The notes under the pieces: generated by a model
Told to the model about the DNA's origin: nothing
The model's database searches: none
Seen by the model: only the letters and a program-made list of their open reading frames with translations
Made by a program: the position numbers and the translations under genes
Part shown: positions 29,865 through 64,000 of the stretch, one piece after another
Layout: every line of letters starts with the position of its first letter
Position numbering within the stretch: position 1 is the stretch's first letter
NCBI GenBank assembly: GCA_037046735.1
Contig: JBAOHC010000027.1
Coordinates: 111,909 to 175,908, forward strand
Direction of reading: 5' to 3'
Length of the DNA stretch: 64,000 bases
From: Candidatus Nanopelagicales bacterium
Lineage (GTDB): Bacteria; Actinomycetota; Actinomycetes; S36-B12; UBA10799

Positions 29865-31076
29865 TCAGGTTCTTCGCCGCACAGGCACACAGCGGGGTAT
29901 GCCGTCGACCATCTGGATGGTGAATCGGCCGTTGTGCAGGTCGCGGTGGCAGCGTGGGCACAGCAGACACATCGCATCGACATCGGTTTGGCCGCCGGCG
30001 GCCCAGCCGGTGATGTGGTGGGCGTGGCAGCGCCGGGCCGGCTGCCCGCAGCGCACACATCCCCGATCCCGCGCCGTGAGTGCGGCCCATTGGGCGTGGC
30101 TGGCGCGGCGCTGGGTGCGGCCCAACGCCAACGGTATGAAGCTGCCCGCCCGGCGTTTGCCCAGGATCACCGACACCACCGCCGAACAGGTCAGCAACGC
30201 GAAGGTGTCCGGGCCCAGCAGGGTGCCGTCCTCCAGGCGGGCCCCGTGGCCGTCGGGCAGCTGCTCGGCATCGACCAGCACCGTCACCCCTGACACCCCC
30301 AACGGCCGGGTGTTGGCCTGCGCGGCACTGACCAGGTCGTCCAAGGCGTCGGCCAGGCGCTGGCTGGGGGTGCGGTCATCCCCGGGCGCGGGCGGGTCAG
30401 TGAACCCGGCCAGCGCGTCGCGCAGCCGGGCCCCGGCCACCTGGTCCAGGTGCCCATCCACCCGGTACAGCCCGTTACCCAGGTCTGAGAGGTGCAGGCC
30501 GCGTTTGGCCCGGGCGCCCCGCAGGTCCTCATCGGGTGCCTCACGGCGGTCCTGGGTGATCAGTATGTCGAGGACCTGGGCCAGCACCACCGGTTCGATC
30601 ACGGCGGCGGCGGCGACCAGATCCGGCTCCAACACCGGGAAGTGCCGCAGGCGGGGGGCGGCCCGGCACAACAGGTGCACATGCCGGCCGGTGATCTCCC
30701 CGGCCCGGTAGGCGTCGGCCACATGCGGCATGGACCGTAGGTCTCGGGCCCGGCCCACGATCGCTGAGCCGACGGCCCGGTTGTTTCCGGTCAACGCGGC
30801 TACCATCGACCCGGTCGTGCCGGCGGCGAACAACCGGGAATCCTGCTGCGCGTCGCTCACCCCGGCGACCTGGGTCTGGTAGGCCTCCAGCATTGTCTGC
30901 AGGCGGGCCGCGGCGCGCACCGCGCCGAGGCGCTGTTCCACGCTCAAATCGGCCGGATCGGGCAGGCCCAGCACGCTCTCGGCCAACTCCTCAAACACCG
31001 CCGGAATCTCCACCGGCAGTTCATCGGCCAGCTGGGCGCGGCGTAACGCCGCCGCCGGAATCTCGAAGAACCCCAT
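29865..31076 (-). CDS. DUF222 / HNH endonuclease-domain protein (REP13E12-like family)
   Basis: 403 aa from the ATG at 31076. The N-terminal two-thirds is DUF222-like (RDLRSMPHVADAYRAGEITGRHVHLL). The C-terminal HNH motif is CVRCGQPARRCHAHHITGW...CLLCPRCHRDLHNG. Confidence 0.8.
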   Translation of the reverse strand: MGFFEIPAAALRRAQLADELPVEIPAVFEELAESVLGLPDPADLSVEQRLGAVRAAARLQTMLEAYQTQVAGVSDAQQDSRLFAAGTTGSMVAALTGNNRAVGSAIVGRARDLRSMPHVADAYRAGEITGRHVHLLCRAAPRLRHFPVLEPDLVAAAAVIEPVVLAQVLDILITQDRREAPDEDLRGARAKRGLHLSDLGNGLYRVDGHLDQVAGARLRDALAGFTDPPAPGDDRTPSQRLADALDDLVSAAQANTRPLGVSGVTVLVDAEQLPDGHGARLEDGTLLGPDTFALLTCSAVVSVILGKRRAGSFIPLALGRTQRRASHAQWAALTARDRGCVRCGQPARRCHAHHITGWAAGGQTDVDAMCLLCPRCHRDLHNGRFTIQMVDGIPRCVPVRRRT

Positions 31077-31480
31077 CAGCACACACCCCCACCCACGACG
31101 GTCGGTGCCGAAACCAGGGGCAAGGCTCCCCTGCGGCGTCGCTCCACGAGCTGATGGCCACCAAACCTGGTGACACCCCAAACCTACGGGGAGGGTCTGA
31201 CATCTTTCACCCACCCGCCCACGGGCATGGGGACAACCCCGACCGAGTCGGGCGGACCCTCATCGACGACCGCCGGAACCGGACCGCGGTACTGGGGGGC
31301 GCCCACGGCACCCCCACACCTAACTGTGGTTCCCCTGTGACGTCGTGAACACGCTGCGCCACGCGTAACGCCACCCGCGTCCGCCACGACAGTGGGCCGC
31401 CACCGCAACGATTCATGCGCCAGCCGCAGACTCAGACAACAACACGACAGGCCAACGCACTACACCGAAACTGTCGAGGC

Positions 31481-50422: not shown

Positions 50423-50451
50423 GAGGTCTACGCTACGACGACCCCCTGACA
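50423..50451 (-). promoter_or_regulatory. leaderless promoter of uvrB with a RecA-NDp (PafBC-type) motif
   Basis: The coding strand reads TGTCAGGG-ggtcgtcg-TAGCGT-agacctc-ATG. It fits tTGTCRgtg-N8-TAnnnT with the exact 8-nt spacer. The -10 hexamer ends 7 nt before the ATG. Confidence 0.55.
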
Positions 50452-51095
50452 TCCGGGGCAGGGGCGGTTGTGCTGTCATCGACCTCGACATCCCACAGCG
50501 GGTGCTTGGTGCGCGCCCAGTCGCGGGACACGTACCCGGTGCGCAACCCTTGCCGGGCACGGGGATCGCTCCAGGCCATCCAGATATGACCGGTCGACAC
50601 CATCATCACGAACAGCGCGAAGACGTCGTGGACGAACGTGGCGCCCGTGCGCAGATCATCTGGGACGAGGGCGAAGAAGTGCATCATCAGTCCGGTGATG
50701 AACATGATCAGCGCGGCCGCCACGACAAACGCCGAATTGAGTTTCTGACCCGCGTTGAACTTGCCGGAGGGTCCCGACACATCCCCGCGCAGTGCCCTGC
50801 GTAGCCAGACCCAGTCTGCCGGCACGAATCTGTTGAGTCGTGAGGCATCGGCACGGAAGGCCGGTGAGAGCACGACTGCCAGGATCAGTGGCAGCGGCAA
50901 CAGCAGCCCGGCCCACAGGTGCACGGTCGACAGCAGTGCGCGTCGGCCGACCAGAGTGCTCAGTGGGTCGACATACAGCACCGCGGCGGTGGTGATGAGC
51001 ACGAGCATGAGCGCAGCCAAGGCCAGGTGGGCCCAGCGCTCGCCGGCACTGAACCGCCGGATCTGATCAGACGACCGGGGTGTCGTCGCGGCCAT
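50433..51095 (-). CDS. cytochrome b (b561/FdnI-like) membrane subunit
   Basis: 220 aa with four hydrophobic segments carrying conserved His ([32 protein letters not shown]). Its 5' end overlaps the upstream molybdoenzyme gene by 29 nt. Confidence 0.6.
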
Positions 51096-51771
51096 TGGAC
51101 CTCCCCACCCACGCGTCCACGGCGTATCCGCGCTCCTCCCAGTAGCCGGGAATGACGTCGTCGGTCACGGTGATGCGGTTGAGCCATTTGCTGGATTTGT
51201 AGAAGTACATCGGCGCCACGTACAGCCGGACTGGGCCCCCGTGATCGTGCGTCACCGGCTCTGAGTTCATCGACGTGGCCACCAGCACGTCGGAACGCAT
51301 CGCCTGCTGCATGGTCAGCGATTCGGTGTACACCCCGTCGGAGGACCCGAACTGGACAGCGCCCGCGCCGGGATGCACCCCCGCCGCGGCCAGCAAGTCG
51401 GCCAACAACACCCCGCCCCAGACGACGTCGGGAACGCGCCATCCAGTGACACACTGCACATCCTTGGTGATCACCTGCTGGGGAAGCCGCGACAGCTCAG
51501 CCAAGGACAGCCGTAGCGGGCGGTCGACCAGCCCGTCGACCGTGAGCGAGTACTTCTCCGGCGGGATGCGCTCGACCTTGTTGACCACCGAGTAGAAACG
51601 GAAGCGCCCACCGCCCGGGATCAGGCCCGTGAGGCCCGTCGGGTCCTTGGCCGCGATCGTGGTCAGGGCGGAGTTGGCACGCGCACCGACCAGCACCCCC
51701 ACGCCAGCCAGACCGAGCAGGCCGAGCACAACGCGCCGACCAACCGGAGTGCCCTGGGCGTCCTGATCCAC
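51067..51771 (-). CDS. molybdopterin-dependent oxidoreductase (sulfite-oxidase/MsrP-like catalytic subunit)
   Basis: 234 aa with an RR-containing signal (VGRRVVLGLLGLAGVGVLVGARA). The Moco-domain blocks are LTVDGLV.RPL.L.L.EL, VTGWRVPDVVWGGV and GGPVRLYVP..YFYKS.KW. Confidence 0.7.
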   Translation of the reverse strand: MDQDAQGTPVGRRVVLGLLGLAGVGVLVGARANSALTTIAAKDPTGLTGLIPGGGRFRFYSVVNKVERIPPEKYSLTVDGLVDRPLRLSLAELSRLPQQVITKDVQCVTGWRVPDVVWGGVLLADLLAAAGVHPGAGAVQFGSSDGVYTESLTMQQAMRSDVLVATSMNSEPVTHDHGGPVRLYVAPMYFYKSSKWLNRITVTDDVIPGYWEERGYAVDAWVGRSNGRDDTPVV

Positions 51772-51840
51772 CTGATCAGTATGTGGGCCATCGCAGCGAC
51801 GTGCAGGGCGGACGCCCGGGCGCGGGCTAGCCTGGGAGCC

Positions 51841-52431
51841 ATGCGGCGGATCGGATTGACCGGTGGTATCGGGTCGGGGAAGTCGACTGTGGCCAGTCTT
51901 TTCGCCGACCTGGGGGCGGTCGTCATCGATGCGGACGCGATCGCCCGCGAGGTCGTTTCGGTGGGCAGTGACGGCCTACGCGCGCTGGTGGAAGCATTTG
52001 GTCCCGGCATCTTGGCCCCGGATGGCAGCCTCAATCGCCAGCGGCTGGCCGACATCGTCTTCGCCGATCCCGCGGCCCGCGCCACACTGAACGCCATCAC
52101 CCACCCCCGGATCGGCGCCCGGACGGCCGAGCTCATCAACGCGCTGCCCGCAGACGCGGTCGTGATCCACGACGTCCCGCTCTTGGTGGAGTTGGGAATG
52201 CAGGACGCCTACGATCTCGTCGTTGTTGTCGACGCCCCCGATGACGTGCGATTGGACCGGCTCGTGGCCAGAGGTCACACCCCCCAGGATGCCGCCGCCC
52301 GAATCGCCGCACAGGCACCACGCGACGCCAGGCTGGCGGCCGCGGACGTCGTCATCGACAACTCCGGGAGCCTCGACGACCTCACTGGGCAGGTGGTGAC
52401 GGCGTGGCCGACGGTGGCAGGCCGGCGCTGA
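51841..52431 (+). CDS. coaE: dephospho-CoA kinase
   Basis: 196 aa from the ATG at 51841, with P-loop GLTGGIGSGKST and typical CoaE sequence (DADAIAREVV, NAITHPRI). Confidence 0.9.
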   Translation: MRRIGLTGGIGSGKSTVASLFADLGAVVIDADAIAREVVSVGSDGLRALVEAFGPGILAPDGSLNRQRLADIVFADPAARATLNAITHPRIGARTAELINALPADAVVIHDVPLLVELGMQDAYDLVVVVDAPDDVRLDRLVARGHTPQDAAARIAAQAPRDARLAAADVVIDNSGSLDDLTGQVVTAWPTVAGRR

Positions 52432-54343
52432 GCAGCCGGGGTCCAAGCCACTGCCAATACAGTCGGGCGCCCTCTTCGGTGAAATGCACACCGTCGGTGT
52501 GCATCGGGACTCCATCGATCGTCGCCCGGTAGTCACCGCCGTCACACAGGTACGGGTTGGGGTCGATGATCGTGATGTCGCGACCGCTGCGACGCACCGC
52601 CTCGCGGGCTGCGGCATTCACAGCCGCGATCCGCGCGGGGTCGTTGACGACATCTGCGAACCTGCCCGCTTGGTACAGCACAGCGTCGGGCAGATCCAGC
52701 GCCGGAGCTCCGTGGCAGGTACCGAGAACCACCGCCTGCGCTGGAAGCTGGGCCAGTTCGGCGATCACCCGGCTGTAGGCGTTGACCGTGGCCTCCTGCC
52801 ACCGACGATCGGTGTACGGCACCGCCTCCCCATCGATCCACCGGTCGTACTGTTCCCAGGGCCCCACAAACATCACCCCCAGATTCGCCCCGGCCGAAGC
52901 GATCCGCTGGGCGCGCTGCTGTTCCCACGTCTGGCATTGCGCGCGGGCCTTGATGGGGGCACCGTTGAGCGCCACGTCGTAGGGCACGAGCCCGCACCCG
53001 AATTCGGTTCCGGGATAGACGCTCAGCCCGGGGATCAGTGCGGGCTGATAAGCGGCATACAGGGACAGCGCGATGGAGTCGCCCACCAGCACGGCACGCA
53101 CATCGCTGGGTGCAGGCGTCGACGTGCTGATCGGCGATGGGCTGCGGGTGGCCGAAGCGGCGATGGACTCCAGGGAATCCGGGGGGGCGGGGCGGGCACA
53201 GGCCGTGGTGAGTCCGACCATCGCGACGATGGCCAGTGGTGCGCCCAGCACCACCGCGACCCGCTGGCGCGAGGTGAAACGTTGGAGGGCTCCCCTCCGC
53301 ACGGGAAGTTCGACCCAGTAGTAGGAAGCCGTGGCGATCGCGAACGTCACGGCGAACCGCAGGGTCAACAGGCCGATCCCCGACAGACCGGTGCGAGCTG
53401 GGCTCAGGACCACGTAGACGGGCCAGTGCCATAGGTACAGACCGTAGGAGATCCGCCCGATCCACACCACGGGGCGGGTGCTGAAGATGCGAGCGACGAA
53501 GCCATCCGGATGGGCTTGGACACTGGCCAGCAAGAGCGCACTCGAGCCGGCGAAAGCCAGGAAGCCCCCGTCATACATCCAGGCACTCTGATCGCTGATC
53601 AGGAGCATGAAGCCGATCAGGCCGACCAGCGCTGCGGGGCCCGCCCATGCGGCAGCCACCCTCACCTTCTGTAGGACGCCGGGCGTCAGCACCGCAGCGA
53701 GCGCCGCGCCAACGAGCAGCGCCTGCAGGCGAGTGTCCGTTCCGTAGTAGACCCGCGAGGCATCAGTCTGTGGACTGGCCAGCCACGCCATCTCCAGGGC
53801 GGACAGGACCGCCAGTCCTGCGAATGTCCAGGCAAGGCGGCTGCGGCGCCACCTGGGCAACAGCAGGACAAGGACCAGTGGGAGCAGCAGGTACCACTGC
53901 TCTTCGATCGCAAGACTCCAGGTGTGGGTCAGCGGAGACGGGTCCTGGAACTGCTCGAAGTAGGAGTTGCCCGATGCGATGAACCACCAGTTGCTCACGT
54001 AGAACAGGGTGGCCAGCGCGTCGGATCGCACGGCCGAGGCTGCCTCTCCGACGAGGAAGGTCGCGTACAGCAGGACCGCGACGAGCACGAGGAAGAGGGC
54101 GGGCAACAGCCGCCTGGCCCGACGCCCCCAGAAGGCCCTCAGATCCAACCGCCCGGCCTGCTCGAACTCGATCAACAGTAGGGAGGTGATCAGGAATCCC
54201 GACAGGACGAAGAAGACGTCGACCCCCAGAAAGCCACCACCGGCCCAGGACGTGCCGCCGTGATAGAACATGACGGCGAGCACCGCGAAGGCCCGGATGC
54301 CGTCCAGCGCCGGTGAGTAGGCAAGCGTCGCTGGGCGGGTCAC
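52382..54343 (-). CDS. OatA-like acyltransferase, AT3 membrane domain fused to a SGNH domain (paralogue 1)
   Basis: 653 aa. AT3 motifs: LDGIRAFAV, GVDVFFVLSGFLIT, FWGRRARRLLPAL, TWSLAIEEQWY, ISYGLYLWHWP. C-terminal SGNH blocks: LVGDSIA ... TDGVHFTEEG. Confidence 0.85.
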   Translation of the reverse strand: MTRPATLAYSPALDGIRAFAVLAVMFYHGGTSWAGGGFLGVDVFFVLSGFLITSLLLIEFEQAGRLDLRAFWGRRARRLLPALFLVLVAVLLYATFLVGEAASAVRSDALATLFYVSNWWFIASGNSYFEQFQDPSPLTHTWSLAIEEQWYLLLPLVLVLLLPRWRRSRLAWTFAGLAVLSALEMAWLASPQTDASRVYYGTDTRLQALLVGAALAAVLTPGVLQKVRVAAAWAGPAALVGLIGFMLLISDQSAWMYDGGFLAFAGSSALLLASVQAHPDGFVARIFSTRPVVWIGRISYGLYLWHWPVYVVLSPARTGLSGIGLLTLRFAVTFAIATASYYWVELPVRRGALQRFTSRQRVAVVLGAPLAIVAMVGLTTACARPAPPDSLESIAASATRSPSPISTSTPAPSDVRAVLVGDSIALSLYAAYQPALIPGLSVYPGTEFGCGLVPYDVALNGAPIKARAQCQTWEQQRAQRIASAGANLGVMFVGPWEQYDRWIDGEAVPYTDRRWQEATVNAYSRVIAELAQLPAQAVVLGTCHGAPALDLPDAVLYQAGRFADVVNDPARIAAVNAAAREAVRRSGRDITIIDPNPYLCDGGDYRATIDGVPMHTDGVHFTEEGARLYWQWLGPRLLSAGLPPSATPSPPAQ

Positions 54344-54359
54344 GGCGTCATCGTATGCG

Positions 54360-56216
54360 TCAACCTGTCAACTGCTGCAGGCGAGGACGCAACGTATCCC
54401 AAACCTTTGCAGAGCCCTCCGGTGAGAAGTGCAGGCCATCTATGTAGAGATCCGAGGGGTCGGGCACACACGTCACTCCATCAAGGTCCACGAAGGAGTA
54501 ACCATGCTCCTCGGCGTATGTGCGCAGCAGGTCGTTCAAGAATTGAGTGCGTGTCCGGTCGTTCTTTGGGTTGTTGATGACGTTGCTCGGCAGGGCTGTG
54601 CAGGGGACGCTGGTGATGACGATCCGTTCCGAACTGAAGTCGCGCAATGTCAAGTCCAGTGCCTGCCGGATCCGGTTCACGTAGCCCTGGGAGCCGAACG
54701 CCTGTAGCATCCCGTTCTCGTCATAGACGTCGAATTGGAAAGAACTCGTCCCCACGAACACGCCAAGTTCGGGCTTCATCGACTGCATGTCGGCGCGCCA
54801 CTGCTGTTCCCAGGCATCGCACGCCGCGGGGTCATCCGCCAACACCGGCGCCCCCGCTGCCTGCACGGTGAGACCGAAGAGTGGACACCCCAGCAGGAAC
54901 GATCCGGTGATGGCGATGTCGTCGCGCGGTGGCACAGTGGCCGGCAGCCACAGCGATCCGGAGACGGAGTCTCCCACGAAGAACGCGGCGGGCCCGGTAC
55001 CGCTGTAGGGCGGCGCGGCGTGATCTGGCAGTGCCTTGGCGAAGACCGTCTGTGAAGCCAGGGGCGTACAAACGACCGCCATGATCACCAGGATCACCGG
55101 GACGGGCATCAGCCACCGCAGTCGCAACCGTCCCTGCCTGATGGGCTTCTCGAGCCAGATGTAAGACGCAGTCGCGATAGATACGGTCAACAGCAGCCGG
55201 ACTGGGGTTGTCGCATTTGTCTGGTCGGCACCGATCATGACCGCGATCGGCCAGTGCCACAGATACAATCCGTAACTGATCACGCCGATCGCCGCCAGCG
55301 GTGTCCAGGAGAGCCAGCGGCCCACCAGACTGGTTCGGTCAAGCGCGCCGATGATCAACAACACACTGCCCATGGCGGCAACCGGCAGCTGGACGGCGAC
55401 CAGACGACCTTCGGGCCACAGAATGAACATCGCCAGAAGCATGCTCAGACCGCAGAGTCCAGCGAAGCCGCCGCGCGCCCCGGCGAATGCCATTCGCGGG
55501 CGCCCACTCGCGACCGACCTGGCACCCACGACGGCCAGCAGACTCCCGAGAAGTAGCTGCTGGGCACGCGTGTCCGTACCGAAGTACAGCCGCTCAACAC
55601 TGGCGCCCTGCTCGGCCAGCCAGGCCGTCCACCCGAAGGACATGACCGCCATTACCGCCAGCAGCCAGATCAGCGGTCGCCATGTGAACCGACGAAGGGC
55701 GATGACGATGAGCAGGATGACAGGCAGCAAGATGTAGAACTGCTCTTCCACGCTCAGGGTCCAGGTATGCAGCAGGGGTGAGGGCTGCTGATAGGCCGCA
55801 AAATATGTCGATCCGCTGAACAGCAAGTACCAATTGTTGACGTAGAAGATGGTGGCTAAGCCCTGGCCCCGGATCGCGGTCTGTTCCAGCGCCGGCACAG
55901 TGAGCGCGTAAAGGAATACCACCGCCAACATCAGTGATAGCGCCGGGAACAACCGACGGATGCGTCGCTCCCAGAACCTTCGCACCGCAAAGGGCTGCGG
56001 CGCCCGCTGGACCAGCAGGGTGGTGATCAAGAAGCCCGACAGCACGAAGAAGACGTCGACGCCGATGTACCCACCCGGAATCCAGCCCTGGCCGAAGTGG
56101 AACATCATCACCGCGATCACGGCGACAGCGCGGATGCCGTCGAGGGATGCGACCCGCCGGTTCGGGGACGCCGCAGTATCAAGTGCAGGTGGCTCCGGGT
56201 CAGTGCGTACGGTCAC
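54360..56216 (-). CDS. OatA-like acyltransferase, AT3 plus SGNH (paralogue 2)
   Basis: 618 aa. AT3 motifs: LDGIRAVAV, GVDVFFVLSGFLIT, FWERRIRRLFPAL, TWTLSVEEQFY, ISYGLYLWHWP. SGNH blocks: FVGDSVS ... IDGLHFSPEG. GTG start in a GTGA overlap with the upstream gene. Confidence 0.85.
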   Translation of the reverse strand: MTVRTDPEPPALDTAASPNRRVASLDGIRAVAVIAVMMFHFGQGWIPGGYIGVDVFFVLSGFLITTLLVQRAPQPFAVRRFWERRIRRLFPALSLMLAVVFLYALTVPALEQTAIRGQGLATIFYVNNWYLLFSGSTYFAAYQQPSPLLHTWTLSVEEQFYILLPVILLIVIALRRFTWRPLIWLLAVMAVMSFGWTAWLAEQGASVERLYFGTDTRAQQLLLGSLLAVVGARSVASGRPRMAFAGARGGFAGLCGLSMLLAMFILWPEGRLVAVQLPVAAMGSVLLIIGALDRTSLVGRWLSWTPLAAIGVISYGLYLWHWPIAVMIGADQTNATTPVRLLLTVSIATASYIWLEKPIRQGRLRLRWLMPVPVILVIMAVVCTPLASQTVFAKALPDHAAPPYSGTGPAAFFVGDSVSGSLWLPATVPPRDDIAITGSFLLGCPLFGLTVQAAGAPVLADDPAACDAWEQQWRADMQSMKPELGVFVGTSSFQFDVYDENGMLQAFGSQGYVNRIRQALDLTLRDFSSERIVITSVPCTALPSNVINNPKNDRTRTQFLNDLLRTYAEEHGYSFVDLDGVTCVPDPSDLYIDGLHFSPEGSAKVWDTLRPRLQQLTG

Positions 56217-58168
56217 CGGGCCAACTCCGTCACAGGGAATGGGATCAGCTCACCGGTCTGTTCAGAGACCCTGTTCCCGATGGTCAGATCGGTGACGCAG
56301 ACAGTGGCGCCGATCGTGCCGGCTGAGACCAGGACTTCTTGGCCCGGTCCGCTGACCCGAAAGAAAACCGCGTGGAGCCCACCGCCGCGCAAGGGAACGG
56401 TGTGAATCCTGCCTCCAACGGCCACATTGAGAGTGGTATCAACGCCGGTGAAGTATGCCACTCGCGCGTAGAAGTCCCATGCGATGAGTTTGCCGTCGAG
56501 GGGAATGCTGCGCGCTTGGTCGGTCACCTTGTATCCGCAGTCCGGATCGGGACCCGGCGGTGCGGCCGGACCTGCGACGGTCTGCTCCTCCACGTTGCCG
56601 TCAGGACTGAAACCGTACATCGTGTCTGCAGCGACATCTGCGAAGATCGGGGCCCCCGGGACCGGGGTCATCACAGTCCGGGCGTTGGCGTATGGGGCCA
56701 TCAATGCAGGATGGATGAGGTCGTCGGGAACGCCTTGGTCCAGCACCTGCTGAGCCGGGGGGATGCGCGAGAATGTCGCTTCGGCGTTCGCCATGTACTC
56801 TCGGGCCTGATTGCTCATCCAGTCCTGGGCCGGCACCACTGTAGACACCAGGGCACTGGCACAGATAACTGCCACGACAATGACGCCACCGCGGCTGACC
56901 CTTGCGGGTTGCCACCGCATCGGAACGACCGCCAACGTCAGCAGCAGCGACACCGGCCAGAGGATGTCAAAGGTGTATCGATAGGCAGTGCTTTCAACGA
57001 CGGTTCCCGATCGGGCCAGTGCCGCGATCACCAAAATGATCAGGGTGAATGTGGCGGTACCAACCAAAAGCGCCCGCAGATGGCGACGGGTGACCCAGAT
57101 CCAGACTGCTGCTGCGGCGGTGGCAACAGCAAAGAGGAACATCGCCCACGTGGCTGGCGCCGGGTTGGTGACGATCGGGGACCAGTTCGGTGGAGGAATC
57201 TCAAACCAGCGCCAAGGACCGCCCCAGATGGCGGGCAAGACGTTGTTGACCAACAGCATCCACATGTATCCGGGTATCTCAGTGAGACTGAAACCTGATC
57301 GCGCGATTTCTGCACTGCGGGTGATGACCAAAAGTATGGCTGCGGCAGAGGCGATCAGCATGGACATCCAGATCTTCTGCCGCCCGCGCCAGGCAGCCCG
57401 CAGACCTCTGGGACCTTCGGGCGTCAGTGGCACAAGGGCGGCTACACCGAACATGAGCAGCGGCGCCATGAAACCACGGCTGAACGAGAAACAGGCACCG
57501 ACAGCACATGCCACCGCGACCCAATCCCATAGTCGGCCGCCCAGGCGTTGGCTGGCGACGACACTGACGACCCCCCCGACGAGGAAGAGCTGGTAGGGCC
57601 CTGCGTAGACGGCGGCCGCCCACCAAGTGCTGTTCTCAAAGCCGAAGAGGCTCAAACCGGCGATCGCAACGATGATCACGCTGCCCTGCCACCGGTCGGT
57701 CAGAAGCAGAGCCAACATGGCCGCGAGCACAAGCGTCGCGGCCCAGAGCACAAGCGTGAATACAGCCAAAGCGGTATGTGATCCCGGGAAGAGCGCCTGC
57801 AGGATCCACTGGTTGAACAGCCCGATGGGGTTGACATGCCCTCCGTAGGACCGGGTCAGGTAGTCGAAGTTCAGCGAGTCGGTGGCCGCCCAGTACCGGA
57901 AAGCGAAGTCATCGGCGTAGAGGTAGCCCCGCAGTGAGATGGACGCCCGCAGCGACACCACGACCACGAGCACGGTGGACAGAATCGCCACATGCTTGCC
58001 TGACAGCAAACCGGCTCCCCACCCTTGGCGCACATCGCGACGATACAGCACGACAGTCGCGAGCCCAGCGTGCATCGCGGTGGTCCCACTCCGTGCCCGC
58101 CCTTTTGAAACAGCGCCACCCGCCCGGTGCCATGACCCTGCCCCACTGCTGAGATCGGGGTTCGTCAC
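56213..58168 (-). CDS. polytopic (about 12 TM) membrane protein with a C-terminal extracytoplasmic domain; putative GT-C-fold glycosyltransferase
   Basis: 651 aa. The first predicted loop carries YLYADDFAFRYW, an acidic DD motif like those of GT-C enzymes. About 12 hydrophobic segments are followed by a soluble tail of about 195 aa. The start is GTG at 58168 (GTGA overlap) or ATG at 58075. The family assignment is an inference, not a recognised match. Confidence 0.5.
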   Translation of the reverse strand: MTNPDLSSGAGSWHRAGGAVSKGRARSGTTAMHAGLATVVLYRRDVRQGWGAGLLSGKHVAILSTVLVVVVSLRASISLRGYLYADDFAFRYWAATDSLNFDYLTRSYGGHVNPIGLFNQWILQALFPGSHTALAVFTLVLWAATLVLAAMLALLLTDRWQGSVIIVAIAGLSLFGFENSTWWAAAVYAGPYQLFLVGGVVSVVASQRLGGRLWDWVAVACAVGACFSFSRGFMAPLLMFGVAALVPLTPEGPRGLRAAWRGRQKIWMSMLIASAAAILLVITRSAEIARSGFSLTEIPGYMWMLLVNNVLPAIWGGPWRWFEIPPPNWSPIVTNPAPATWAMFLFAVATAAAAVWIWVTRRHLRALLVGTATFTLIILVIAALARSGTVVESTAYRYTFDILWPVSLLLTLAVVPMRWQPARVSRGGVIVVAVICASALVSTVVPAQDWMSNQAREYMANAEATFSRIPPAQQVLDQGVPDDLIHPALMAPYANARTVMTPVPGAPIFADVAADTMYGFSPDGNVEEQTVAGPAAPPGPDPDCGYKVTDQARSIPLDGKLIAWDFYARVAYFTGVDTTLNVAVGGRIHTVPLRGGGLHAVFFRVSGPGQEVLVSAGTIGATVCVTDLTIGNRVSEQTGELIPFPVTELAR

Positions 58169-60060
58169 CCGCGCCGGTCGCTAATCTGTTGGAGCACATA
58201 GGCCCACAGGAAATCGCGACCCTGATTACTCCAGTGAACCCCGTCCTGACGCAGCGTGGTTCCCGCAATGGCATTCACCGGGCCACGGCTGGAGCACGAC
58301 AGAGGAGCCAAGTCTATGAATTCTGCATTCTCATGGGTGTGGGCCACCTGGCGCAGGATTTCGTTAAGTGCGGCTTGCCTGGTGCGATCGTTGAGTACGT
58401 CGCCGTTGAGTTCGGGGCCCGCCGCGTGGCAGGGGACACCGAGTATGTACACCGGTCCCTCGCCAGGCGGTGTGATGAGGTCAACTGCCTGGGCTACTGC
58501 CTCCGAAACCGCGGCGGTGTACTCGGGCGAACCGGGCGGGTAGTGCACCCCGTTCTCCACGACGTCGAACAACTCCCAGACATTCTCCATGAGCACGGTG
58601 GCGTCCGGTTTCGCCCAGGCGACAAAGTCGGCCCACCTCTGCTGCCACCCGTCGCATTCCACACCGGCAGGGTTCGACCCCACCTGCTGAAGTCGCCTGT
58701 CCCGGATACCGCATCCCAGTGGCGCCAAGTACGTGAACTGCGTATTTCTGTACCGCGAGGTGGGGAAGCCGCCTGCAGCAGTGTAGGCAGTGGAGTCGCC
58801 GAACAATGTCAGCCGAGTGGGCAGTGAGGTGGCCGACGGCCACTGCGATTCAGACGGCTCGCCTCCCTGCGCACCGACCGTAGGGACGAAGGCGAGCGCC
58901 GCGACCACGGCCACCCCAACGCCGTACGTCACCCACTGGCGCGCAGCGGGCAGACTGCTGAACCGGACACCACGGATAGGTCTCTCGATGAATCGGGTGG
59001 TGCCCCACGCCAGGACCACTGACACCGCGATGGCCCACACTTGTCCGCCCAAAGGTGTGTCCTGATTGCCTTGGATCCACAGGAACACGGGCCAGTGCCA
59101 CAGGTACAGCGCGTAGGAGATGCCCCCGACCCACACCAGCGGCCGCCAGCTGAACATGCGAGCAAGGGCGGAGTGGGAGGACTCCAGCACCGCCCAAAGG
59201 AGTACAGCAGACAAGAGGGCTGCAGCCGTCAGGACTCCGGCGTACGGCCTCTGCGTCCAAGGCTGGGCAAACACCATAAGCACCAAGAGGCCAGCCAACG
59301 CGACCCATCCCAGCGACTGCCGGAGCACCTTCGTCGGCCCATCCCCCACCTGGACCGGCCGGGCTACCACGAGCCCGAGCACGACGCCGATGAACAGTGC
59401 CTGCACCCGCGTACCCGTTCCGAAATAGACGTGTATGGGAGCGACGCCCTGCAGGGACCATGCCCACCCAGCGCTCGCCACGGCGAGGACCACGAAGCAC
59501 GCGACCAGCGACCGGGCACCTACTCGCATCCTCCATAGGAGCCACAGCAGCAGTGGCAACACGATGTAGAACTGCTCTTCAATTCCGAGTGACCAGGTCT
59601 GCAGCAAAGGCGACGGTGAACCCCACTGCGTGAAGTATTGAGCGTCACCGGCGAGCGCCCACCAGTTCGTGACGTACAGCAAAGCCGCGATGGCATCGCC
59701 GCGCAGACCCGGACCGCCCTGGACAAGACCGAGGATCGACATGGCAAGGACAGCCGCGACCACCGTAAGCAGGGCCGGGGCCAAACGGCGTGCCCGGCGA
59801 AGCCAGAAATCGACGGGACGGCTGCGCAGGTTCCAGGGATGTCCCGCAACCAGAATTCCGGCCATCAGATAACCCGAGATCACGAAGAAGACGTCCACCC
59901 CGAGGAATCCTGCGGACAGCCACTGACCGTCGGTGTGGAAGGCCAGAACCGTGCCTATGGCGAGCGCTCGCAACCCATCCAGGGGTAGGTAGCGACGACC
60001 TCCAGCTGTCACAGGGGCGACAGCAGCAACGGGCACCTGGGTGTCCTTGGCGGTCGTCAC
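58165..60060 (-). CDS. OatA-like acyltransferase, AT3 plus SGNH (paralogue 3)
   Basis: About 631 aa from the GTG at 60060 (VTTAKDTQ...). AT3 motifs: LDGLRALAI, GVDVFFVISGYLM, FWLRRARRLAPAL, TWSLGIEEQFY, ISYALYLWHWP. SGNH blocks: LFGDSTA ... QDGVHWSNQG. The ORF-track extension to 60399 is Cys/Pro/Ser-rich and not protein-like. Confidence 0.8.
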   Translation of the reverse strand: MTTAKDTQVPVAAVAPVTAGGRRYLPLDGLRALAIGTVLAFHTDGQWLSAGFLGVDVFFVISGYLMAGILVAGHPWNLRSRPVDFWLRRARRLAPALLTVVAAVLAMSILGLVQGGPGLRGDAIAALLYVTNWWALAGDAQYFTQWGSPSPLLQTWSLGIEEQFYIVLPLLLWLLWRMRVGARSLVACFVVLAVASAGWAWSLQGVAPIHVYFGTGTRVQALFIGVVLGLVVARPVQVGDGPTKVLRQSLGWVALAGLLVLMVFAQPWTQRPYAGVLTAAALLSAVLLWAVLESSHSALARMFSWRPLVWVGGISYALYLWHWPVFLWIQGNQDTPLGGQVWAIAVSVVLAWGTTRFIERPIRGVRFSSLPAARQWVTYGVGVAVVAALAFVPTVGAQGGEPSESQWPSATSLPTRLTLFGDSTAYTAAGGFPTSRYRNTQFTYLAPLGCGIRDRRLQQVGSNPAGVECDGWQQRWADFVAWAKPDATVLMENVWELFDVVENGVHYPPGSPEYTAAVSEAVAQAVDLITPPGEGPVYILGVPCHAAGPELNGDVLNDRTRQAALNEILRQVAHTHENAEFIDLAPLSCSSRGPVNAIAGTTLRQDGVHWSNQGRDFLWAYVLQQISDRRG

Positions 60061-60112
60061 CCTGCCGAGATTACACAGCCGATCACCTGCGGAGACGGCC
60101 AAGAGCGGGACC

Positions 60113-60343
60113 TCATGGCGTGATCGACTTCCACAGTTCTTGTAGTTGCTGGGCCTGCTGGGGATCGCGCAGCAGTTGTGGATCTGCCCAGGTGACTGCA
60201 TCGACGTACCCATCGGGTAAAGGCCGGGCATAGTGGCCGACCCGCCATCCCGGTCCGCTGAGGAACAGCGGGTCCATTGGGGTTGGGTCGGCGGGCACCC
60301 GGCATGAATCTCTGCTGAGCCAGGAACCTGTCTGTGAGGCCAT
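60113..60343 (-). CDS. small hypothetical protein at the head of the AT3 operon (or a gene remnant)
   Basis: 76-aa ORF with protein-like composition (...DPLFLSGPGWRVGHYARPLPDGYVDAVTWADPQLLRDPQQAQQLQELWKSITP). G/C third-position use is about 66 % by my count, lower than in core genes. No family recognised. Confidence 0.3.
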   Translation of the reverse strand: MASQTGSWLSRDSCRVPADPTPMDPLFLSGPGWRVGHYARPLPDGYVDAVTWADPQLLRDPQQAQQLQELWKSITP

Positions 60344-60467
60344 CTCGTGGGCGCCGGGGAGTCGATCTCCTGGGTGACGCCTGGTACGGCGAATACCACC
60401 TAACGCCTCCCACGGCCTGACCCAACACGATCATGCCGACCTTAGCCGATCGTGTCTCCCGCACGAC

Positions 60468-60508
60468 GAGTTCGGCCCCGCACCCTCTTGGGGCGCGGGG
60501 CCGAACTC
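60468..60508 (-). terminator. rpsA terminator hairpin
   Basis: GAGTTCGGCCCCGC ... GCGGGGCCGAACTC forms a perfect 14-bp stem with a 13-nt loop, beginning 21 nt downstream of the rpsA stop. No U-tract, which is common in high-G+C actinobacteria. Confidence 0.65.
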
Positions 60509-60528: not shown

Positions 60529-62001
60529 TCAGCCCTCTTGCTGCAACTTCTCCCGCAGCGCGGCAAGAGCCTCGTTCGCGTCATCATCCAGCGACCCTGA
60601 CGGCTCGGCGGGAGCGGCGGTGTAGTCACCGGAGACCGCAGCCTCTTCGTCGGCTTTCTTGGCCTCGGTGATCTGCTCCTTGTGCTGGGTCCAGCGCTGG
60701 TAGGCCTCCTGGTACTGCTGCTCCCACTCGGTGCGCTGATCCTCGAAGCCCTCTTTCCACTCACCGGAGACCGGGTCGAAGCCCTCGGGACCGATGTACG
60801 CGCCGTTCTCGTCGTATGACGCGGGCATGCCGTACAGGTACGGATCGAACTCGTCGGTGGTCTCAGCACCGGCGTCCTCATTCGCCTGCTTGAGCGACAG
60901 CGAGATGCGGCGGCGTTCGAGGTCGATGTCGATGACCTTCACGAAGATCTCGTCACCAACCGTGACGATCTGCTCGGGGATCTCCACATGACGCTCAGCC
61001 AACTCGGAGATGTGCACCAGACCCTCGATGCCCTCGGCCACCCGCACGAACGCGCCGAACGGCACGAGCTTGGTGACCCGGCCGGGAACGACCTGGCCGA
61101 TGGCGTGGGTACGGGCGAAGTGCTGCCACGGGTCTTCCTGCGTGGCCTTCAACGACAGCGAGACCCGCTCGCGGTCCATATCCACGTCGAGCACCTCGAC
61201 AGTGACTTCCTGGCCGACCTCGACGACCTCCTGCGGGTGGTCGATGTGCTTCCAGGACAGCTCGGACACGTGAACGAGGCCGTCGACGCCACCGAGGTCC
61301 ACGAAGGCACCGAAGTTGACGATGCTCGACACGACGCCGGAGCGGACCTGGCCCTTCTGCAGCTGGTTCAGGAAGCCGGTGCGCACCACGGACTGGGTCT
61401 GCTCGAGGAAGGCCCGCCGGGACAACACGACGTTGTTCCGGTTCTTGTCCAGCTCGATGATCTTGGCCTCGATCTCCTGACCCACGTAGGGCTGGAGGTC
61501 GCGCACCCGGCGCATGTCGACCAGCGACGCCGGCAGGAAGCCGCGCAGCCCGATGTCCACGATCAGACCGCCCTTGACGACCTCGATCACATTACCGGTG
61601 ACGACGCCATCGGCTTCCTTGATCTTCTCGATGTCGCCCCACGCCCGCTCGTACTGCGCGCGCTTCTTGGACAGCATCAGACGGCCGTCCTTGTCTTCCT
61701 TCTGCAGGACCAAGGCCTCGACCCGATCCCCCACGGCAACCACCTGCGACGGATCGACGTCGTGCTTGATGCTCAGCTCACGCGCGGGGATGACACCCTC
61801 GGTCTTGTACCCGATGTCGAGCAGGACCTCATCGCGGTCGACCTTGACGATGACACCCTCCACGATGTCGCCGTCGTTGAAGTCCTTGATGGTCGCATCG
61901 ATGGCCGCGAGCAGTGCCGCGTCATCACCGATGTCGTTGACGGCCACCTGGCGGGCCGCGGAAGATGTGGGAGCAGGGTTGATATCGGGGTTGTCAGTCA
62001 T
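60529..62001 (-). CDS. rpsA: 30S ribosomal protein S1
   Basis: 490 aa with four S1 repeats (GDIVEGVIVKVD..., GVVTGNVIEVVKGG..., GQVRSGVVSSIVNFG..., GQVVPGRVTKLVPFG...) and an acidic C-terminal tail. Confidence 0.95.
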   Translation of the reverse strand: MTDNPDINPAPTSSAARQVAVNDIGDDAALLAAIDATIKDFNDGDIVEGVIVKVDRDEVLLDIGYKTEGVIPARELSIKHDVDPSQVVAVGDRVEALVLQKEDKDGRLMLSKKRAQYERAWGDIEKIKEADGVVTGNVIEVVKGGLIVDIGLRGFLPASLVDMRRVRDLQPYVGQEIEAKIIELDKNRNNVVLSRRAFLEQTQSVVRTGFLNQLQKGQVRSGVVSSIVNFGAFVDLGGVDGLVHVSELSWKHIDHPQEVVEVGQEVTVEVLDVDMDRERVSLSLKATQEDPWQHFARTHAIGQVVPGRVTKLVPFGAFVRVAEGIEGLVHISELAERHVEIPEQIVTVGDEIFVKVIDIDLERRRISLSLKQANEDAGAETTDEFDPYLYGMPASYDENGAYIGPEGFDPVSGEWKEGFEDQRTEWEQQYQEAYQRWTQHKEQITEAKKADEEAAVSGDYTAAPAEPSGSLDDDANEALAALREKLQQEG

Positions 62002-62183: not shown

Positions 62184-63182
62184 CTAGACAGAAGCTGTAG
62201 CGCCCTGCGCGGGTGCCGCAGCATCCCCATCCTTCTTGTCCCCGCCACGGCTGAGCAACAGTCCGATCACGATGAGCACGATGCCCAGGATGGCGAACAC
62301 CAGCGGCAGCGTGGTGCCGATCATGGTGACCAGTCCTGCCAGGGCGGCGGCGTCATCTGCGGACTCCTGGTTGCCGCTCTTGCCGGTGTAGTCGGCCTTG
62401 ACGAGCTTCTGCTCGCCGTCAAGGTCATAAGTAGTGAACTCGCTGGACTCACCCTGGATGATCTGGCCGGTGACCGGCTCCATCCAGTACGTGCTCTTGG
62501 AGGAGTACATCTCGTCGAGGACCGTACTGCCCTCAGCGTCCTTGTCCTCGCCCGGGATCGCCGATGTCGGGATCTCGAGGGTGTCGACCATGGTGGGCGG
62601 CACCTCGTTGGTGTAGACGTAGGTCGGCACTCCGAAGACCGTCTCTTCACCCTGGTAACTCCACGTGGTGCCCGTCTTGATGGACGAGTTGAAGACGTTG
62701 TAGTCCTGCTTCTGCAGATCGAATGCCCACTTGACCGGCATCACGGCGCCCGTCATGTCCACCGGCTCATCATCCACGCTGGCCCCACAGCAGTTGGCCA
62801 GTTCCGAACTCACCCGGTTGAAGGGGTAGCGCGCCGTGGACGCAGTGATCAGCTCGCCCGTCGCGTCGTCGTTGACCCGCATGAAGTAGTCGAAGACCGC
62901 CAGATCCTCGGCCTGGGCCTCTGGCTGCTCGGCCGCCGGCACATCACCGCGGACGTAGATGGACTGGGTGGCCGCGACGTTGCGCTCATAGGGGTCGGGG
63001 TCCCCAGCAGCGACCTTCGCGGGGTTGAGCAGCTGTGCGAACTCAACGACTGCGGTGCTCTCGGTGTATTGATCAGTCGGGGTCTTCGCAGCGCTGGGTA
63101 GTACGTAGAACTTCAACAGCGGAGCAAGCACCAGCAGCATCGCTCCGAGCCCCAGCAGGATCAATCCCACTACTCGCTTCAT
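62184..63182 (-). CDS. DUF3068-like envelope protein (N- and C-terminal TM anchors)
   Basis: 332 aa from the ATG at 63182 (Shine-Dalgarno GGAGGG). MKRVVGLILLGLGAMLLVLAPLLKFYVLP... is followed by a large extracytoplasmic domain, then a C-terminal TM and a charged tail. The family call is from memory of the DUF3068 pattern. Confidence 0.55.
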   Translation of the reverse strand: MKRVVGLILLGLGAMLLVLAPLLKFYVLPSAAKTPTDQYTESTAVVEFAQLLNPAKVAAGDPDPYERNVAATQSIYVRGDVPAAEQPEAQAEDLAVFDYFMRVNDDATGELITASTARYPFNRVSSELANCCGASVDDEPVDMTGAVMPVKWAFDLQKQDYNVFNSSIKTGTTWSYQGEETVFGVPTYVYTNEVPPTMVDTLEIPTSAIPGEDKDAEGSTVLDEMYSSKSTYWMEPVTGQIIQGESSEFTTYDLDGEQKLVKADYTGKSGNQESADDAAALAGLVTMIGTTLPLVFAILGIVLIVIGLLLSRGGDKKDGDAAAPAQGATASV

Positions 63183-63249
63183 TACGCCCTCCATAGTTGG
63201 CCTCAGTGACAAGGGACGTTATCGGAAAACACCCCTCTAATGCGACATG

Positions 63250-64000
63250 ATGGGCAGACACGCCCTAAACAGGTATCCTCCCCCTGTGACGAGCACGAGG
63301 CGGCGCCGTGCTGCGGACTTCTTACAGATCGAGACCGTGGTCCCGCATCGGTTTCGCACCCTTGACGGCTATCGCGCGATCGCCGTTCTCGCCGTCGTCA
63401 CGACGCACGTGGCGTACTTCAGCGGGATCGTGGTCATCACCGCGTGGGGACACATGTTCGCCCGCATGGACATCGGCGTCACGATCTTCTTCCTGCTATC
63501 CGGTTTTCTGCTCTACCGGCCATGGTCCAAGGCGGCGCTGCACGACAGCCGCTGGCCCAGTACCCGCACGTACTTCCGGCGACGACTGTGGCGCATCGTG
63601 CCCGCCTACGTGGTGCTGGTGGTGGTCGTGCTGGCCTTCATGCCCGGCATCGAGGTCCTTCCCAAGCATTGGCTCGCACATCTGACTCTGACGCAGATCT
63701 ACTGGCCAAAACTGCTGATCAATGGGTTGACCCAGAGCTGGTCGCTGGCCACGGAGTTGTCGTTCTACCTCGTGCTCCCGGCCATCGCCTGGTGGATCGG
63801 CCGACGCCACCGGGGGGATGTCGCGGCCAACACCAGGCGCCAATTGTGGACGCTGGCCGCGTGTGGCGGGCTGGCATTCGCCTGGCTGCTCCTGCGCACC
63901 CTCACACCGGTGGGTGAGTTCACGGTGGTCAACATGTGGCTGCCCAATTTCATGGACTGGTTTGCCGTCGGCATGTTCTTCGCGTTGGTCCACAATCGCC
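63250..64000 (+). CDS. acyltransferase family 3 (AT3) membrane protein, 3' end beyond the window (paralogue 4, divergent)
   Basis: This is not in the ORF track because it has no stop in the window. The frame is open from ATG 63250 (alternative GTG 63286) to the end. The sequence reads ...FRTLDGYRAIAVLAVVTTH..., MDIGVTIFFLLSGFLLYRPW, YFRRRLWRIVPAY and QSWSLATELSFYLVLP. Confidence 0.75.
   Translation, partial: MGRHALNRYPPPVTSTRRRRAADFLQIETVVPHRFRTLDGYRAIAVLAVVTTHVAYFSGIVVITAWGHMFARMDIGVTIFFLLSGFLLYRPWSKAALHDSRWPSTRTYFRRRLWRIVPAYVVLVVVVLAFMPGIEVLPKHWLAHLTLTQIYWPKLLINGLTQSWSLATELSFYLVLPAIAWWIGRRHRGDVAANTRRQLWTLAACGGLAFAWLLLRTLTPVGEFTVVNMWLPNFMDWFAVGMFFALVHNR

Follow-up and report, generated by a model that had tools for sequence, protein, structure and literature searches.

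In a 64,000-nucleotide stretch of contig JBAOHC010000027.1 (assembly GCA_037046735.1, Candidatus Nanopelagicales bacterium; positions 111,909 to 175,908 of the forward strand), hereafter the window, four large minus-strand open reading frames (ORFs) fill the space between rpsA (60529–62001) and the convergent gene coaE (51781–52431). A first-pass annotation, made from the sequence alone, placed the four consecutive ORFs at 58165–60060 (or up to 60399), 56213–58168, 54360–56216 and 52382–54343, and we found all four. It read them as a translationally coupled operon in which three acyltransferases, each with an acyltransferase-3 (AT3) membrane domain fused to an SGNH domain, bracket a membrane protein resembling GT-C glycosyltransferases. 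What would such a block do, and to which glycan of the cell envelope? The answer towards which we lean slightly is an extracytoplasmic tailoring module, which would add sugar and O-acyl groups to an envelope glycan associated with AftD. Domain content, catalytic motifs, fold, synteny and cassette-like variation of the acyltransferases were observed here. Below, the acyltransferases are called A, B and C in order of transcription, with the central GT-C gene between A and B, and loci in other genomes carry our own numbers.

Results

The central protein

Sequence searches with the central protein returned no match in Pfam (E up to 10) or NCBIfam and none in the PDB by phmmer; when the PDB was searched with a family profile built from 41 sequences, nothing meaningful came up. 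The protein had no sequence match to PF11847 or to the AftB and Emb models, and an hhalign comparison of the family profile with the neighbouring AftD homologue was not significant. An AlphaFold2 model (41 homologues) scored 90.3 for predicted local distance difference test (pLDDT) and 0.87 for predicted template modelling, with disorder confined to residues 1–51, and had about 11–13 membrane-length helices, where the first-pass annotation gave exactly 12. The top 18 Foldseek matches to this model in the PDB were all GT-C enzymes, namely STT3, PglB, AglB, EmbA/B, Pmt4 and DPY19 (probability 0.96–1.0, E 1e-4 to 1e-2). PMT_2 (PF13231) was the sole Pfam family matched by homologues of the protein (3/41 and 4/73 sequences, best E 2.5e-9). 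The fold and this family match thus bear out the first-pass description of the protein as GT-C-like.

The YADDFAF motif that the same annotation pointed out was also present. It follows the first transmembrane (TM) helix, in the first extracytoplasmic loop, and its residues D86 and D87 were invariant in the 41 homologues; among 73 diverse members of the family D55 was invariant and D56 at least 90% conserved. A GGPWRW loop was nearly invariant. In the model, residues from about 470 to 640 form a C-terminal beta-sandwich with two conserved cysteines and no helix after it. Modelled alone (pLDDT 84), this sandwich best matched Cry-toxin domain III and the jelly rolls of carbohydrate-binding module (CBM) families 4, 6, 16, 36 and 61, with E of about 1e-3. 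Clustered at 50% identity, the family has 4,131 members with E <= 1e-3, of which 1,380 have E <= 1e-30. GT-C enzymes draw on lipid-linked donors at the outside of the membrane, and sequence divergence is typical of them (PMC9574508). We conclude from the model that the central protein has a predicted GT-C fold, belongs to an undescribed family and carries a carbohydrate-binding-like ectodomain; it would presumably be catalytic.

The PMT_2 matches, and Pmt4 among the Foldseek matches, could also mean that the protein is a PMT-like protein O-glycosyltransferase, with the acyltransferases acting on glycoprotein glycans. We consider this improbable. PMT_2 also includes ArnT-type lipid and glycan transferases, the central protein has no MIR domain, and its CBM-like domain, together with the AftD-like and AftB-like neighbours described below, favours a polysaccharide acceptor.

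The three fused acyltransferases

All three acyltransferases scored above the Pfam cut-offs for both domains (Table 1). The AT3 and SGNH motifs (R-X10-H, [GA]G-F/Y-xGV-D, FFxxSG, RRxRR, GDS and DGxH) each occurred once in A, B and C, in the expected order and position, with AG replacing GG in the loop motif of A. The GDS motif lies at residues 421, 415 and 421 of A, B and C, and the block V DxxH motif at residues 606 (DGVH), 593 (DGLH) and 617 (DGVH). These motifs correspond to the published AT3 definitions, that is R/K-X10-H in TM helix 1, a GG-F/Y-xGV-D loop, an FFxISG-type motif and RxxR in TM helix 3, and mutagenesis of OafA has found the same AT3 and SGNH motifs to be essential (PMC7448272). 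The first-pass claim of three paralogues with intact motifs and no decay therefore stands. Pairwise identity of 32–35% marks A, B and C as old paralogues and not recent duplicates. By their sequences they are AT3-SGNH fused O-acyltransferases of the OafA/OatA type, and they are predicted to transfer acyl groups to an extracytoplasmic carbohydrate.

Orthology with SucT was considered and ruled out, since the three proteins scored 90–111 bits against the NCBIfam SucT equivalog NF058601, whose cut-off is 1275 bits, and the alignment was confined to the AT3 part. The idea that SucT is Rv0228, beside AftD, was dropped as well, the literature placing SucT at Rv1565c/MSMEG_3187. The 3′ ends of C and coaE overlap by 50 nt (52382–52431), as they also do in L095 (9496–9545).

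Conservation of the block and exchange of acyltransferases

We defined a close clade as loci with a GT-C protein at least 42% identical to that of the window and sampled nine lineages of it. At least one AT3-SGNH gene adjoined the GT-C gene on the same strand in 9/9 lineages. Outside the window lineage the full four-gene block was found in one other organism (L095), where an AftB-like GT-C gene is followed by A, the central gene, B and C. Identity to the window was 63% for A, 69% for the GT-C protein, 81% for B and 74% for C, compared with 78% for coaE. Co-occurrence of the four genes was thus confirmed in a second organism, L095, and adjacency of GT-C and AT3-SGNH genes in the nine lineages.

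The acyltransferases themselves differed, with five types (A to E) among the relatives. Orthologues of type A, 55–63% identical and 633–640 aa long, were present in L095 and L097, and those of type B (61–81% identical) in L001, L002, L012, L016 and L095. L097 has A only and L012 has B only, on a contig that is cut; L002 has B and D, L013 and L015 have E and D, and L001 and L016 have B with a truncated or split C. Type C is reduced to an AT3-only stub in L001 (13717–14721) and split into two ORFs in L016 (11490–13591), through either real decay or assembly error; the window and L095 have intact copies. Because the GT-C gene is constant while the AT3-SGNH set differs, the conserved unit is the GT-C gene with an exchangeable complement of acyltransferases. 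The first-pass annotation had taken the three paralogues as the unit, but they are interchangeable between relatives and not conserved as a set.

These data bear on a simpler explanation, in which A, B and C are OatA-like peptidoglycan O-acetyltransferases, or have separate targets, and lie beside the GT-C gene for co-expression only. OatA is itself an AT3-SGNH protein (PMC7448272), and homologues of the three are named 'peptidoglycan/LPS O-acetylase OafA/YrhL' in databases. Such names are generic, however, and adjacency to the GT-C gene was kept in all nine lineages despite replacement of one acyltransferase type by another. The start/stop overlap described below recurs, and in 12 distant species an AT3 gene directly follows a GT-C gene of the wider family. 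We regard the explanation as having little chance of being right.

A wider locus with AftD, an AT3-only acyltransferase and PgfA

Immediately upstream of rpsA the relatives have genes for a glycosyltransferase of family GT4, a methyltransferase, an AftD homologue (PF11847 with CBM_AftD), an AT3-only acyltransferase and a PF11271 protein, and the block lies beyond rpsA. The window ends within this region. Its PF11271 protein exceeded the cut-off of the NCBIfam PgfA equivalog (Table 1). PgfA is a mycobacterial lipid-trafficking factor whose gene is co-transcribed with that of an MmpA orthologue (PMC9678360). The AT3-only gene of the window is 80% identical to a gene of L012 and 73% to one of L097, both of which sit between AftD and the PgfA-like gene. 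It thus appears TmaT-like, with the same family membership and adjacency to AftD as mycobacterial TmaT, a likeness by family and position.

The association extends well beyond the close clade. We counted neighbours within 8 kb of distant GT-C homologues (24–32% identical) at loci from 78 actinobacterial species. An AftD homologue was present at 58/78 loci and an AT3-only gene at 50/78, with both at 49/78. At 12/78 loci, from Nocardioides, Pedococcus, Marmoricola and several metagenome-assembled genomes (MAGs), the AT3-only gene was directly downstream of the GT-C gene on the same strand, often near rpsA. PgfA-like and MtrP-like genes were also found near distant homologues. In the seven non-mycolate loci with ORFs listed, no separate large polytopic gene lay beside PgfA. 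Nineteen loci had no AftD/AT3-only context and were mostly paralogues from Nocardia, Mycobacterium and Rhodococcus. A count by tblastn with AT3-SGNH queries had suggested that the distant homologues lack acyltransferase neighbours, and was overturned by the AT3-only query (50/78). By gene order, then, the window block is a displaced arm of a conserved AftD/TmaT-like locus, situated across rpsA, and the company of AftD, AT3-only, PgfA-like and MtrP-like genes resembles the tmaT locus of Corynebacterineae.

Some individual contexts were noted in passing. Those of the distant homologues L005, L007 and L009 had no consistent pattern. In L005 (7127–11795) a 34%-identical homologue that matches PMT_2 has a start/stop overlap with an NAD-dependent sugar epimerase gene, and genes for a PAP2 phosphatase and a diacylglycerol-kinase-like protein come next; this different setting may point to a pathway for a lipid-linked sugar donor. 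GT-C paralogues outside the AftD/AT3/PgfA context occur in some members of the non-tuberculous mycobacteria, Nocardia and Rhodococcus, and one contig of Mycobacterium palustre (NZ_LQPJ01000115.1; L078 and L079, 4520–22232 and 93977–111689) apparently holds two copies.

The gene neighbourhood raises a second explanation, in which the GT-C-like protein is mainly a non-catalytic partner of the AT3 enzymes, an MmpA-like scaffold or substrate presenter that they require, and the acceptor is possibly a glycolipid. The family sits by PgfA-like, AT3-only and MtrP-like genes, which is the slot of MmpA in the tmaT locus. MmpA has no recognisable catalytic domain, yet is needed for TmaT-dependent acetylation in Corynebacterium glutamicum (PMC8698533), and a 2026 preprint reports a 1:1 complex of TmaT and AftD (bioRxiv 10.64898/2026.07.31.741936). 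Against a pure partner role, the DD motif is conserved (invariant in the 41 homologues) and several loop motifs are kept across the 73 diverse members, which favours catalysis, and MmpA is described with a TM helix after its soluble domain whereas the central protein ends in its soluble domain. In addition, neither the window lineage nor its relatives are known to make mycolates. A mainly non-catalytic role is unlikely in our judgement, though it deserves more weight than the peptidoglycan explanation.

Gene starts and translational coupling

One of the two start/stop overlaps in the first-pass annotation held up on closer analysis. The GTGA overlap of the central gene with B (56213–56216) has a GGAG 8 nt upstream, and a 4-nt overlap recurs in L001, L013 and L095. 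The 16-nt gap between B and C was also seen, and is of the same length in L095. The GTGA at 58165–58168, between A and the central gene, exists but is probably not the start of the latter. Residue 40 of the window protein is where the two closest homologues begin, gene callers begin the protein at M32, and in the first 30 codons of the longest ORF G+C peaks at codon position 2, a non-coding pattern, although this measure discriminates weakly between starts. In L095 the same junction is a 25-nt gap. The homologue-supported start is likely ATG 58075 or GTG 58051, which would probably leave a gap of about 89–113 nt and no overlap between A and the central gene in the window. Credible translational coupling is probably limited to one junction, that between the central gene and B, and the claim of a translationally coupled operon, correct for that overlap, was overstated for the block as a whole.

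The extension of A to 60399 was not upheld. Public gene callers give A 744 aa, a call that we rejected as spurious in favour of 631 aa on the basis of the orthologue lengths and of a relic of another gene, at 60113–60345, in another frame. A scan of the block for sigma-70 promoters and intrinsic terminators found no promoters and six terminator-like sites, against 4.1 expected, and was uninformative.

An AftB-like relic beside rpsA

The relic upstream of A (Table 1) is 56% identical over 84 aa to a 527-aa membrane protein of L095 (tblastn, E 2e-21). Its stop codon aligns with that of the L095 gene in the DNA alignment, and its translation, in a frame other than that of A, agrees. L095, L097 and L015 have the corresponding AftB-like GT-C gene intact in this slot (512–527 aa), and these intact homologues match the NCBIfam AftB model NF041481 with E 2e-13, below its cut-off. 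About 1.3 kb of the 5′ part of the gene has been deleted in the window, and the hairpin 3′ of rpsA now adjoins the relic. This stem-loop, which has no U tract, is a probable rpsA terminator by its sequence and fold, in which case transcription of the acyltransferase block would depend either on read-through or on a separate promoter within the relic region.

With this slot included, a broader proposal can be made for the rpsA–coaE gap, namely that in this wastewater clade it is a fixed chromosomal hotspot. One conserved, unnamed GT-C gene would be combined there with interchangeable AT3-SGNH genes, of which each genome has one to three drawn from five or more types, and with an AftB-like GT-C gene that may be absent. 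Between them they would acylate and glycosylate the product of the pan-actinobacterial AftD/TmaT-like/PgfA locus in combinations specific to each lineage. We put this forward tentatively.

A relic next to the block, and a truncated or split type C gene in two relatives, might also be taken as signs that the block is decaying and no longer functions in the window organism. We find this very improbable. The four genes of the window are full length with all catalytic motifs intact, the block is conserved in L095 at 63–81% identity, and an identical block is present in independent metagenomes.

Genomic setting

The window has a G+C content of 63–70% and carries a housekeeping stretch that is conserved in Actinobacteria, with suf genes, ctaA, tkt-tal-zwf-opcA-pgl, tpi and gap, whiA-cofD-rapZ-uvrC, uvrA, TerC-uvrB, an MsrPQ-like pair, coaE and rpsA. 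Metagenome contigs in ENA, from an anaerobic digester and other sources, encode block proteins 99.7–100% identical to those of the window. The nearest genomes are activated-sludge MAGs labelled Micrococcales, Nanopelagicales or Actinomycetota. From these habitats, the host of the block is an uncultured wastewater actinobacterium.

Two neighbouring features are recorded here for completeness. The MsrPQ-like pair (molybdopterin oxidoreductase and cytochrome b561; 50433–51771, minus strand) lies between uvrB and coaE, in a slot occupied by a DDE transposase in L002 and by nothing in L013; its contents differ among relatives, so it is a second variable spot beside the acyltransferase block. A gene for a DUF222 and HNH endonuclease protein (29865–31214, minus strand) lies amid the pentose-phosphate and glycolysis genes. 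Genes of this kind are of a selfish-element type common in actinobacterial genomes.

Table 1. Features of the block and its surroundings, in window coordinates. Pfam cut-offs are 31 bits for PF01757 (AT3) and 27 bits for PF19040 (SGNH).
Feature	Position	Strand	Evidence and remarks
AT3-SGNH acyltransferase, type A	58165..60060	-	631 aa, start GTG 60060; PF01757 93.6 bits, PF19040 36.1 bits; all motifs
Predicted GT-C-fold membrane protein with C-terminal CBM-like beta-sandwich	56213..58075	-	620 aa from ATG 58075; alternative starts GTG 58051 and GTG 58168
AT3-SGNH acyltransferase, type B	54360..56216	-	618 aa; start overlaps GT-C stop (GTGA); PF01757 98.9 bits, PF19040 29.6 bits; motifs
AT3-SGNH acyltransferase, type C	52382..54343	-	653 aa; 50-nt 3′ overlap with convergent coaE; PF01757 97.5 bits, PF19040 72.3 bits; motifs
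Relic 3′ end of AftB-like second GT-C gene	60113..60345	-	about 75 codons and stop; tblastn, DNA alignment, frame
Stem-loop, terminator-like	60468..60508	-	perfect 18-bp G+C-rich stem just after rpsA stop, no U tract; sequence and fold
PgfA-family (PF11271 'PorA'/DUF3068) envelope protein	62184..63212	-	Pfam 189 bits; NCBIfam PgfA equivalog 192.3 bits (cut-off 160)
AT3-only acyltransferase, TmaT-like position	63247..64000	+	runs off window end; identity and synteny

Discussion

The first-pass description was right for the most part, and its suggestion of a dedicated glycan-modifying module was reasonable, but it missed the link to a known locus. From the observations above we infer the enzymatic activities, the sugar donor, the acceptor, co-transcription and the physical pairing of the proteins. 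The central protein, with its DD motif and CBM-like sandwich, would move a sugar from a polyprenyl-phosphate donor to a glycan on the outer face of the membrane. Each AT3 domain would pass an acyl group from cytoplasmic acyl-CoA across the membrane, and the SGNH domain would then place it as an ester on one particular hydroxyl group of that glycan. The GT-C protein and the downstream acyltransferase would be co-translated and may form a physical pair, by analogy with TmaT and AftD. The several AT3-SGNH enzymes may differ from one another in the position that they esterify or in the acyl group that they transfer, and with the GT-C gene fixed and the acyltransferases as exchangeable cassettes, acylation of the surface glycan would differ between lineages.

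The target is likely the product of the AftD-centred locus that flanks rpsA, with its conserved AftD, AT3-only, PgfA, methyltransferase and GT4 genes, and possibly a polymer containing arabinofuranose. The first-pass annotation spoke of a module that extends a glycan; addition of a single-sugar branch, or a role as a non-catalytic partner, is just as compatible with the data.

Several points weigh against a tailoring module. The window protein matches no GT-C sequence family in Pfam, NCBIfam or the PDB, and the Foldseek TM-scores are modest, at about 0.35. Among the window genes scanned there was no GT-A polyprenyl-phosphate glycosyltransferase, GtrA flippase or UbiA/DprE. A single transcript has no promoter or terminator support, and the gap between A and the central gene is about 90–110 nt. 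The second, AftB-like GT-C gene has been lost here, so the pathway may be partly degraded, and the acceptor glycan is deduced wholly from the gene neighbourhood.

The enzyme classes are already known, and there are precedents for the association of GT-C and AT3 proteins. What is new is the unnamed GT-C family and its association with AftD and AT3 genes across the phylum, the block that joins a GT-C gene with up to three AT3-SGNH genes, and the cassette-like gene exchange. The AftD/TmaT/PgfA/MmpA/MtrP locus is essential in mycobacteria and is a drug-target area. A large GT-C family that has no Pfam or NCBIfam model belongs to the AftD/TmaT/PgfA locus across the phylum, and is repeatedly paired with AT3-type acyltransferases, sometimes with translational coupling. 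Nocardioides, Pedococcus and Micromonospora offer a tractable comparative system, free of pathogens, for asking which glycan AftD-type enzymes build outside the mycolata, and whether the pairing of GT-C and AT3 proteins is general. The exchange of acyltransferases suggests that acylation of the surface glycan is a variable trait in activated-sludge actinobacteria, and phages and epibionts in activated sludge select on surface structures. If the hotspot proposal were true, the locus would be the counterpart, in Gram-positive bacteria without mycolates, of O-antigen serotype conversion, and the physical pairing of GT-C and AT3 proteins, as in TmaT and AftD, would be an ancient and general design and not a mycobacterial speciality.

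Comparison with known systems

OafA and OafB of the Salmonella O-antigen, OatA of peptidoglycan and SucT, which succinylates mycobacterial arabinan, share the AT3-SGNH fusion with A, B and C, including the full set of essential motifs. Unlike these systems, the window has three AT3-SGNH genes in one block with a GT-C gene.

Another parallel is found in the multicomponent extracytoplasmic glycosylation systems, namely Gtr-type O-antigen modification and the addition of side chains to rhamnan by CsdAB/CflA and GacIJKL. In these systems a GT-C enzyme of divergent sequence modifies an already completed glycan on the outside of the membrane, and the decoration genes vary between strains (PMC9574508). 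The block differs from them in its partners, which are acyltransferases, and no GT-A polyprenyl-phosphate-sugar synthase and no GtrA or Wzx flippase was found in or near it among the window genes scanned.

In architecture, the central protein is like EmbA/B/C, AftD and AftB in that a GT-C membrane domain is followed by an extracytoplasmic, carbohydrate-binding-like beta-sandwich, with EmbB among its Foldseek matches. It is like the mycobacterial arabinofuranosyltransferases in setting too, having AftD and AftB-like genes as neighbours. Unlike them, it is far smaller (620 aa), has one C-terminal module and matches none of the PF11847, AftB and Emb models.

The first-pass annotation knew of no described system with this architecture, but the tmaT locus (PMC8698533) and the TmaT–AftD complex (bioRxiv 10.64898/2026.07.31.741936) are close precedents. 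The tmaT locus of Corynebacterineae comprises TmaT (an AT3 protein), PgfA (Rv0227c/NCgl2760), MmpA (Rv0226c/NCgl2761) and MtrP, and AftD lies close by. MmpA, which is polytopic and has an ectodomain, is reported to be partly similar to the membrane domain of AftD, and MmpA, TmaT and MtrP must all be present for trehalose monocorynomycolate to be acetylated and exported (PMC8698533). Homologues of AftD are found in 11 further actinobacterial orders. With PgfA-like, AT3-only, methyltransferase and AftD genes as neighbours in many Actinobacteria, and across rpsA from them in the window lineage, the family of the central protein holds the position of MmpA, with which we compared it by published description only; no NCBIfam model matched it. 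The central protein differs from MmpA, whose extracytoplasmic domain lies between the last two TM helices (PMC8698533), in having a clear DD motif and in ending, according to the model, in a soluble domain with no later TM helix. The block also departs from the tmaT locus in that its acyltransferases are AT3-SGNH fusions and not AT3-only proteins, number from one to three and vary among relatives, and in that its host is no known mycolate producer. The two have the same gene families as neighbours: in this lineage a PgfA equivalog, an AT3-only gene next to AftD, a methyltransferase gene and a GT4 gene flank rpsA, and, as in the tmaT locus, a polytopic protein with an extracytoplasmic domain on its C-terminal side is genetically tied to an AT3 acyltransferase.

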